Origin: Eledone cirrhosa
Lineage: Eukaryota
DNA length: 64,000 nucleotides
Direction of reading: 5' to 3'
NCBI GenBank assembly: GCA_964016885.1
Contig: CAXHJY010000879.1
Coordinates: forward strand, 1-64,000
Part shown: piece after piece, positions 21,710 to 60,150 of the stretch
Layout of the letters: each line of letters begins with the position of its first letter
How positions within the stretch are numbered: position 1 is the stretch's first letter
The notes under the pieces: model-generated
Database searches by the model: none
What the model saw: only the letters and a program-made list of their open reading frames with translations
Told to the model about the DNA's origin: nothing
Translations under genes and position numbers: made by a program

Positions 21710-22056
21710 CTAACTTGGGCATGTTGTATTCTGTAAAAGAATATTGTCTATAGCCATATCGTTTGTGTAATGTCCACTTCGGGTAGCAAGGAATGATATT
21801 TCTAAGTTTTTATTAACTGGAAGCATAGCACAGGCAAAGTGCCATAAATTTCCTTGGTTTCCTGTCTTTTGCCACACTATTGTTTTATTTGCAACATCTA
21901 TTTCTGTTACCATTAGTTGTAATGTTCCCATCTCTTCACCATACATGCTGTAGTTGAAGGTTAAACTAGAAATACTGTTGATGGTGAAATTTGGTGATGT
22001 GAAAGCAGCAATGTCTCCATTTTCACCCTTTGATCCTTCTGTATACATATACCATC
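21710..22056 (-). CDS. Protease gene last coding exon: MAM3 C-terminal part
   Basis: GWYMYTEGS...[17 protein letters not shown]...[12 protein letters not shown]...DMAIDNI...CPS-stop; splicing 21715 to 21426 would also give S-stop. Confidence 0.92.

Positions 22057-60150: not shown

Follow-up and report, generated by a model that had tools for sequence, protein, structure and literature searches.

A stretch of 64,000 nucleotides from Eledone cirrhosa (GCA_964016885.1, contig CAXHJY010000879.1, positions 1 to 64,000; the window) raises the question whether a membrane-anchored serine protease can carry its catalytic domain inside the polypeptide, and what kind of enzyme such a protein would be. 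The first-pass annotation had read 34 phase-compatible exons as a mosaic protease whose frame runs on behind the catalytic domain into a tail of LDLa and MAM modules. All 34 exons, on the minus strand from 60150 to 21710, were placed by hand from the sequence, refined at their ends and joined, and this reading stood: the joined exons comprise 5286 nt and form one open frame of 1761 codons, with the stop at 21712-21710 and no internal stop. All acceptors are AG; of the 33 donors, that of intron 20 (after 36266) is GC and the other 32 are GT. The order in the 1761-residue frame is TM-SEA-Thr/Pro-FZ×3-LDLa×3-SRCR-protease-LDLa-MAM-LDLa-MAM-LDLa×2-MAM, and Pfam, run exon by exon, agrees with it (Fz three times, LDLa seven times, a weak SRCR_2, pieces of Trypsin and of MAM; LDLa exons 24 and 27 lie slightly below the curated cut-off). 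The locus is an intact gene for a predicted type II serine protease with an internal catalytic domain. Its features are:

59886..60150, minus strand: exon 1, cytoplasmic segment and type II TM anchor, aa 1-88 (TM about 59958-59896), aligned with the O. sinensis and O. bimaculoides N-termini
56466..59502, minus strand: exons 2-4 (59502-59384, 59217-59150, 56581-56466), SEA with GSI motif; Pfam SEA in orthologues
55438..55764, minus strand: exon 5, Thr/Pro-rich mucin-like stalk
48842..51257, minus strand: exons 6-8 (51257-51021, 49657-49568, 48919-48842), FZ1 and Thr-rich spacer; Pfam
45375..47379, minus strand: exons 9-11 (47379-47143, 46289-46185, 45416-45375), FZ2 and spacer; Pfam
43086..44296, minus strand: exons 12-13 (44296-44057, 43175-43086), FZ3; Pfam
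40715..41776, minus strand: exons 14-16 (41776-41666, 41395-41288, 40825-40715), LDLa 1-3; Pfam
37279..38725, minus strand: exons 17-19 (38725-38611, 37924-37811, 37328-37279), SRCR; weak Pfam match, above the cut-off in the O. bimaculoides orthologue
36266..36440, minus strand: exon 20, protease with Cys876 (chymotrypsin Cys1), Met890|Ile891 (36396-36391), His57 (36276) and the GC donor
34969..35243, minus strand: exon 21, protease middle with Asp102 (35113) and Cys122 (35053)
34279..34415, minus strand: exon 22, protease with Ala at 189 (34290), which is Asp in trypsin-type enzymes
33397..33553, minus strand: exon 23, protease with Ser195 (33547), Val216 (33481), Gly226 (33448), C-terminal helix and phase-1 donor 33397
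31715..31816, minus strand: exon 24, LDLa 4, directly abutting the protease (W-I-x4-5-C-x-F-x-C)
29650..30722, minus strand: exons 25-26 (30722-30564, 29976-29650), MAM 1; Pfam
28687..28812, minus strand: exon 27, LDLa 5, divergent; Pfam, below the cut-off
26649..28519, minus strand: exons 28-30 (28519-28385, 27577-27438, 26862-26649), MAM 2; Pfam
24377..25833, minus strand: exons 31-32 (25833-25723, 24487-24377), LDLa 6-7; Pfam
21710..23748, minus strand: exons 33-34 (23748-23602, 22056-21710), MAM 3 and stop; Pfam

Exon 1 opens at a phase-0 acceptor (60150), where a start codon is absent. Translation would begin either in an upstream exon or at Met54 (59991): the N-terminus of O. sinensis X1, MSK|EELSD, points to a tiny upstream exon, and Met54 aligns with the start of the O. 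vulgaris protein. The best candidate for a start exon upstream of 60150, at 62226, was rejected because it sits in a retroelement-like remnant (about 62200-62850, minus strand), which looks to us like the 3'-terminal part of a LINE reverse-transcriptase frame. Hydropathy analysis gave one hydrophobic segment at about aa 63-85, preceded by basic residues, and no signal peptide, which predicts an anchor of the TTSP type. Both a self-built HMM and the Pfam SEA matches of the orthologues from O. vulgaris and O. sinensis back the SEA assignment; the GSI of exons 2-4 lies at what we take to be the usual SEA self-cleavage position. A six-frame HMM scan of the window recovered no further FZ, LDLa, MAM or protease exon, nor a terminal LDLa exon below 21710. 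An omega-toxin Pfam match on LDLa 2 (E 0.072, under the cut-off) was taken as chance. The GC donor of intron 20 (36265-36260, CAG|GCAAGT) comes just after the exon with the catalytic His, and a nearby GT would break the frame.

The window also contains two exons of a Wnt9 gene on the plus strand (13088-13340 and about 17805-18241), convergent with the protease gene. Its last exon is 96% identical to O. bimaculoides Wnt-9a, and the two genes adjoin in O. vulgaris as well (consecutive accessions). Conserved linkage beyond octopods was not supported, the Potamilus genes being on different scaffolds. Long intronic tandem-repeat arrays with units of a few dozen bases occupy 56700-59050, 38900-40000 and 34450-34950; the arrays at 34.5 and 39 kb have one unit in common, further traces of which occur near 49.2-49.9 kb. 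AT-rich microsatellites are also present and, together with the identities of the protease (64-66%) and of the Wnt9 exon to their Octopus counterparts, suggest an octopod.

That the frame continues through the donor at 33397 into the LDLa-MAM tail, as the first-pass annotation had it, is borne out by splice-site scores and by relatives. A leave-one-out matrix gives the donor (CAG|GTATGT) 11.1, one of the higher values among the gene's 33 donors (range 3.4-12.3), and the acceptor at 31816 scores 8.2 with the splice-site matrix, mid-range for the gene. O. vulgaris (CAI9739445.1), O. sinensis (LOC115223468) and O. bimaculoides (LOC106874472) have orthologues with the same module order and 64-66% identity to Eledone, and in all three records the last protease helix is followed directly by LDLa 4 and by a tail with three MAMs like that of Eledone. 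Orthologues with this order are also recorded for Sepia pharaonis ('CORIN', CAE1326370.1), Mytilus ('corin', VDH95306.1) and Magallana (K1QGP8). Eleven Logan proteins of relatives carry the join, 10 of them matching the junction motif; they fill 83-97% of contigs of 3.5-5.8 kb, and those contigs are therefore without introns. Six of these proteins fall into a 90% cluster with the named S. pharaonis protein and four cluster with Magallana records, and we infer that the contigs are transcript assemblies of these relatives. In the AlphaFold model of the O. bimaculoides orthologue (mean pLDDT 77.9, pTM 0.53; pocket loops 54-62, domain arrangement unsure) the last protease helix continues into LDLa 4 without a linker at pLDDT 84-91. 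Judged from the sequences of relatives, the join of protease and tail is real at the level of the family.

The catalytic domain itself has an intact triad (H930, D977, S1073) together with IVGG and GDSGG. His57-Asp102-Ser195, the Ile16-type new N-terminus and Asp194 place it in S1A by sequence, fold matches and Pfam Trypsin agree, and activity is predicted. Asp189 directs cleavage after Arg or Lys (available text of PMC7834812), and neither this residue nor an Arg/Lys activation site is present in Eledone: the pocket is non-tryptic (Ala189, Val190, Val216, Gly226) and the activation site reads VPM|IVGG (Met890|Ile891). C876 and C997, the Cys1/Cys122 pair, are both there and would link the stem to the catalytic chain by a disulphide. 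Of the 27 protease domains of the mollusc clade, 25 keep an intact triad. Position 189 is Ser in 18, Ala in 7, Thr in 1 and Asp in none of the 26 countable domains, and position 216 is Val in 26/27 and Ile in the other. At the activation site, P1 is one of Phe, Tyr, Leu and Met in 18/27 and basic in 2/27; Phe/Tyr is commonest in bivalves and gastropods, and cephalopods have Met/Leu. In the same alignment matriptase and TMPRSS9 carry Asp189 and Gly216, with Arg/Lys at the activation site. The gene is apparently duplicated in Batillaria (P0017) and Dreissena (P0090, P0125), and Batillaria's second unit carries Arg at its activation site, possibly a return to trypsin-type activation.

With vertebrate TTSPs (TMPRSS2, enteropeptidase, matriptase, hepsin) the Eledone protein shares the N-terminal TM, a modular stem (SEA, FZ, LDLa, SRCR) with the LDLa-SRCR-protease core, Cys1/Cys122 and an activation site before IVGG. 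The first-pass annotation had stated that vertebrate TTSPs end at the protease domain, and the accessible part of PMC10376093 says as much of all 17 human TTSPs, which end at a trypsin-like domain. In contrast, the Eledone protein has 640 aa after its protease, the length first proposed for the module on the activated chain (from domain order; its retention is predicted), along with the Ala189/Val216 pocket and Met activation. Since Asp189, Gly216 and the Arg site are missing and a tail stands behind the protease, the mollusc family, by its sequences, differs from TTSPs not in layout alone but also in chemistry.

An internal catalytic domain within one gene, as originally claimed, recurs in the Octopus species and in other molluscs. 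With the O. vulgaris protease-plus-MAM1 region as query, protease-LDLa-MAM was found in 23 of the 120 matches listed out of 1016, among them Haliotis, Gigantopelta, Batillaria, Bradybaena, Mytilus, Crassostrea, Saccostrea, Mercenaria, Ruditapes, Dreissena, Mya, Mactra, Sinanodonta and Potamilus. Among 150 representatives listed, 17 have a MAM after the protease, 15 of them with an LDLa in between; the 17 include Tubulanus and Owenia, and Lineus came from the matches to the O. vulgaris query. The join thus occurs in three Octopus species, a cuttlefish, gastropods and bivalves, and the mollusc layout reads TM-SEA-stalk-FZ(1-8)-LDLa(2-4)-SRCR-protease-LDLa-MAM-LDLa-MAM-LDLa-LDLa-MAM-LDLa; the last LDLa is missing in octopods, Eledone included, and present in most other molluscs. 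The first-pass annotation had allowed that this architecture might already be both common and characterised. Common in molluscs it is; as to the second part, our literature search, which most subscription papers lay outside, found no description of the architecture or of six octopus and oyster accessions.

A fusion of a corin-like front with a MALRD1-like tail, as proposed at first, is not supported by our data. Two nemerteans and an annelid (Tubulanus, Lineus, Owenia) possess the LDLa-SRCR-protease-LDLa-MAM core, and their proteins (Lineus P0021, Tubulanus P0178, Owenia P0181) are polyserase-like, with two or three non-tryptic protease domains split by LDLa/MAM runs; the FZ profile found no FZ in these three relatives. 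In a quick protease tree of 81 of 97 domains (16 redundant or broken ones left out; no named vertebrate or insect corin among the proteins) the 27 mollusc-clade domains form one group (SH-aLRT 97), with matriptase and TMPRSS9 elsewhere, and the nemertean, Owenia and Lingula domains join it at an SH-aLRT of 89, which is not strong. Because the core is present in nemerteans and an annelid, the layout, on this distribution, is an old lophotrochozoan one and no octopus fusion. As these relatives have protease-LDLa-MAM without FZ, it is the FZ array, rather than the tail, that looks like the later, molluscan addition, a reading drawn from presence and absence instead of a rooted test. A possible further lead, known by description only, is a pair of shell proteins from a brachiopod whose contigs are numbered consecutively; the accessible part of PMC4453069 gives one as MAM plus S1 and the other as LDLa-SRCR-S1.

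How would such an enzyme work? The reading we favour, with modest confidence and at slightly better than even chances, is that of a type II zymogen on a SEA/mucin stalk which an elastase- or chymotrypsin-type activity cleaves at Met890|Ile891, which remains linked to its stem through Cys876-Cys997 and which uses its tail as a docking arm for surface or matrix proteins that it trims or sheds. By analogy with TTSP biology, the zymogen would be anchored with its N-terminus inside and displayed on the SEA and mucin stalk, the cut at Met890|Ile891 would activate it, and the disulphide would hold the catalytic chain to the stem. The activating enzyme would be of the elastase or chymotrypsin type, not trypsin. 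In cephalopods the protease may make this cut itself, because a Met/Leu P1 fits the Ala189/Val190/Val216/Gly226 pocket; we consider this a serious possibility that falls somewhat short of an even chance. Val216 normally narrows the pocket against Phe and Tyr, and with Phe/Tyr as the commonest P1 in bivalves and gastropods self-activation is therefore doubtful outside cephalopods. The linker-less tail could be an exosite, or a tether, that binds glycosylated proteins of the surface or matrix, likely docking substrate or matrix at an epithelial surface, and the enzyme would remodel or shed the bound proteins after small to medium aliphatic residues. The shortened FZ repeats would serve as spacers or protein-binding units and not as canonical Wnt-lipid receptors. 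Drosophila Notopleural, according to the available text of PMC6331135, is an invertebrate TTSP that can self-activate and degrade apical matrix.

A bolder version, which we put forward tentatively and consider rather unlikely in its entirety, sees an old and undescribed lophotrochozoan subfamily that reverses TTSP logic: it activates itself by a non-tryptic cut at Met, Leu, Phe or Tyr outside trypsin cascades, carries an LDLa/MAM targeting arm on its catalytic chain, and has an expanding, gene-converted, Wnt-blind FZ array that sets its reach from the membrane.

An enteropeptidase-like enzyme, that is a gut brush-border switch for digestive zymogens whose zymogen-binding MAM/LDLa exosites have moved behind the protease, has in its favour that the PDB's closest multi-domain protease structures are those of TMPRSS2 and enteropeptidase, and an enteropeptidase cluster is the top language-model look-alike of the protease-plus-tail region (0.91; a lead only). 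The Eledone protein and enteropeptidase also both contain SEA, LDLa, MAM and SRCR. However, an enzyme that lacks Asp189 should not cut a Lys-ending activation peptide, and CUB does not figure among the Pfam matches of the orthologues, which makes this role distinctly unlikely.

The FZ array invites the thought of a Wnt-pathway modulator that captures Wnt, perhaps that of the neighbouring Wnt9, and cuts Wnt or a co-receptor. Each Eledone FZ domain keeps its ten cysteines, and in the O. bimaculoides orthologue the modelled domains fold like Frizzled CRDs (Z 13-14.9, rmsd about 2 A); Wnt9 is the convergent neighbour and carries the next accession number in O. vulgaris. Against this, the FZ domain spans about 105 residues in the model vs about 118 in Fz8, and the segment between Cys8 and Cys9 is short and without its W-P motif. 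All three Eledone domains have a Cys8-Cys9 gap of 8, and in 49/50 family domains it is 5-12 (the remaining one is uncountable) vs 14-15 in 11/11 FZ domains of other FZ-proteases. It is in this segment that, as we assume, Met122, Tyr125, Phe127 and Pro130 of Fz8 fall. These four residues are used by the Wnt-lipid channel of Fz8, as stated in the accessible part of PMC6873803. Half of the Wnt-lipid groove has probably been lost in the shortened domains, and canonical Wnt binding by them is unlikely, since the missing stretch is where these channel residues are placed. The different scaffolds of Potamilus and an FZ number that ranges from 1 to 8 across molluscs argue in the same direction, and a Wnt role is left with a slim chance.

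The array has a history of its own. Two 604-bp blocks around the first exons of FZ1 (exon 6; 50967-51570) and FZ2 (exon 9; 47089-47692) are 99% identical, introns included, with 6 differences of which 3 change a residue; the second exons of FZ1 and FZ2 share only 65% amino-acid identity. O. bimaculoides and O. sinensis show the same first-exon pattern, with 95-97% identity inside each species and 71-74% to Eledone. This suggests repeated gene conversion of one FZ exon, although the 99% identical blocks may alternatively be an assembly artefact. In FZ3 (44296-43086) the first exon resembles the second-last FZ of the Octopus species (65-70%) and the second exon is at least as near to that of the last FZ; recombination between repeats may have cost Eledone one FZ.

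We give very little credence to the idea that the protein is the corin of molluscs, converting peptide hormones and extended by a tail, even though the databases call it so. Their names are all automatic ('corin-like', 'uncharacterized', 'corin', 'atrial natriuretic peptide-converting enzyme-like'), and TM, FZ, LDLa, SRCR and protease modules are indeed common to both. Corin, however, is defined in the accessible part of PMC10376093 by two FZ (as the first-pass annotation had noted), eight LDLa, an SRCR and a C-terminal protease, and SEA is not listed for it. The mollusc family has 1-8 tandem shortened FZ, a SEA on a mucin stalk and a tail; Eledone has three tandem FZ and three LDLa before its protease. 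Insect Corin, represented by that of a beetle, retains R|IVGG and Asp/Gly/Gly according to the available text of PMC11172050, and the mollusc family has neither: without Asp189 and the Arg activation site the 'corin-like front' of the earlier reading does not hold, and the pocket argues against conversion of pro-natriuretic peptide. By its sequence, the enzyme is likely different from the corin whose label it bears. A 'Corin' expressed only in the light organ of the bobtail squid, described in the accessible part of PMC10329180, may belong to the mollusc family.

MALRD1 and MAMDC4 are built of alternating LDLa and MAM modules. The Eledone tail shares this alternation with such arrays, but the arrays are without a protease, and the origin first proposed for the tail finds no support in a quick MAM tree, in which the family MAMs fall into position-specific cross-mollusc groups (MAM1, 97; MAM2, 99; a weaker MAM3, 84). 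MAM1 and MAM2 stand apart from the sampled arrays, and no family MAM joins the group (91) that holds most MAMs of three sampled, unnamed MAM/LDLa arrays (named MALRD1 left out; weak backbone). A precedent, already named at first pass for Drosophila, is insect Nudel, a type II mosaic protease with LDLa behind its active protease domain and the layout LDL2-SP-LDL2-SPH-LDL3 (available text of PMC11172050; layouts also in that of PMC4085338). As described there, Nudel differs in its trypsin-type first domain, its second, inactive protease domain and its lack of FZ, SEA and MAM; the Eledone protein has one protease domain and both FZ and MAM.

Within the tail, LDLa 4 shares 47-83% identity with each of the 11 relatives compared, and between octopus and non-cephalopods the MAM modules are 24-37% and the protease 37-48% identical. 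The higher identity of LDLa 4 over the MAMs is what one would expect if protease and LDLa 4 form a conserved unit and the distal tail is freer; the MAM values would suit either a specific exosite or a loose spacer. LDLa 6 (25833-25723) contains a DSSDE motif, which is also present in O. vulgaris. This motif has been reported as an apical-sorting signal in corin and CD320 (accessible part of PMC7605860). Being missing from 5/7 other relatives checked, it may be incidental here.

Intron 23, between protease and tail, contains AATAAA hexamers, and read-through of donor 33397 meets an in-frame stop after four codons, so that a short, tail-less isoform could exist. The same hexamers, together with a 33397-31816 join that is known from relatives and not from Eledone reads, are what would speak for an adjacent protease gene and MAM/LDLa gene falsely joined by a chance donor, a scenario which is almost certainly wrong since the join is kept residue for residue in relatives, intron-free contigs included, exon 24 begins in phase 1 inside a six-cysteine LDLa, and a start exon for the tail is absent from every full-length orthologue examined.

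All modules of the protein are familiar, and no long-standing open question is answered by it. The standard definition of a TTSP nevertheless asks for a trypsin-like protease at the C-terminus, and the mollusc family departs from it on both points, a departure that dates back at least to the common ancestor of cephalopods, gastropods and bivalves. With 'corin' as the label in mollusc annotations, expression reports may be misread, and studies of mollusc 'corin' expression may read a blood-pressure function into a different enzyme. Our results also offer a clear and cheap test, that of a surface protease which would be activated without trypsin and aimed by modules behind its catalytic domain.
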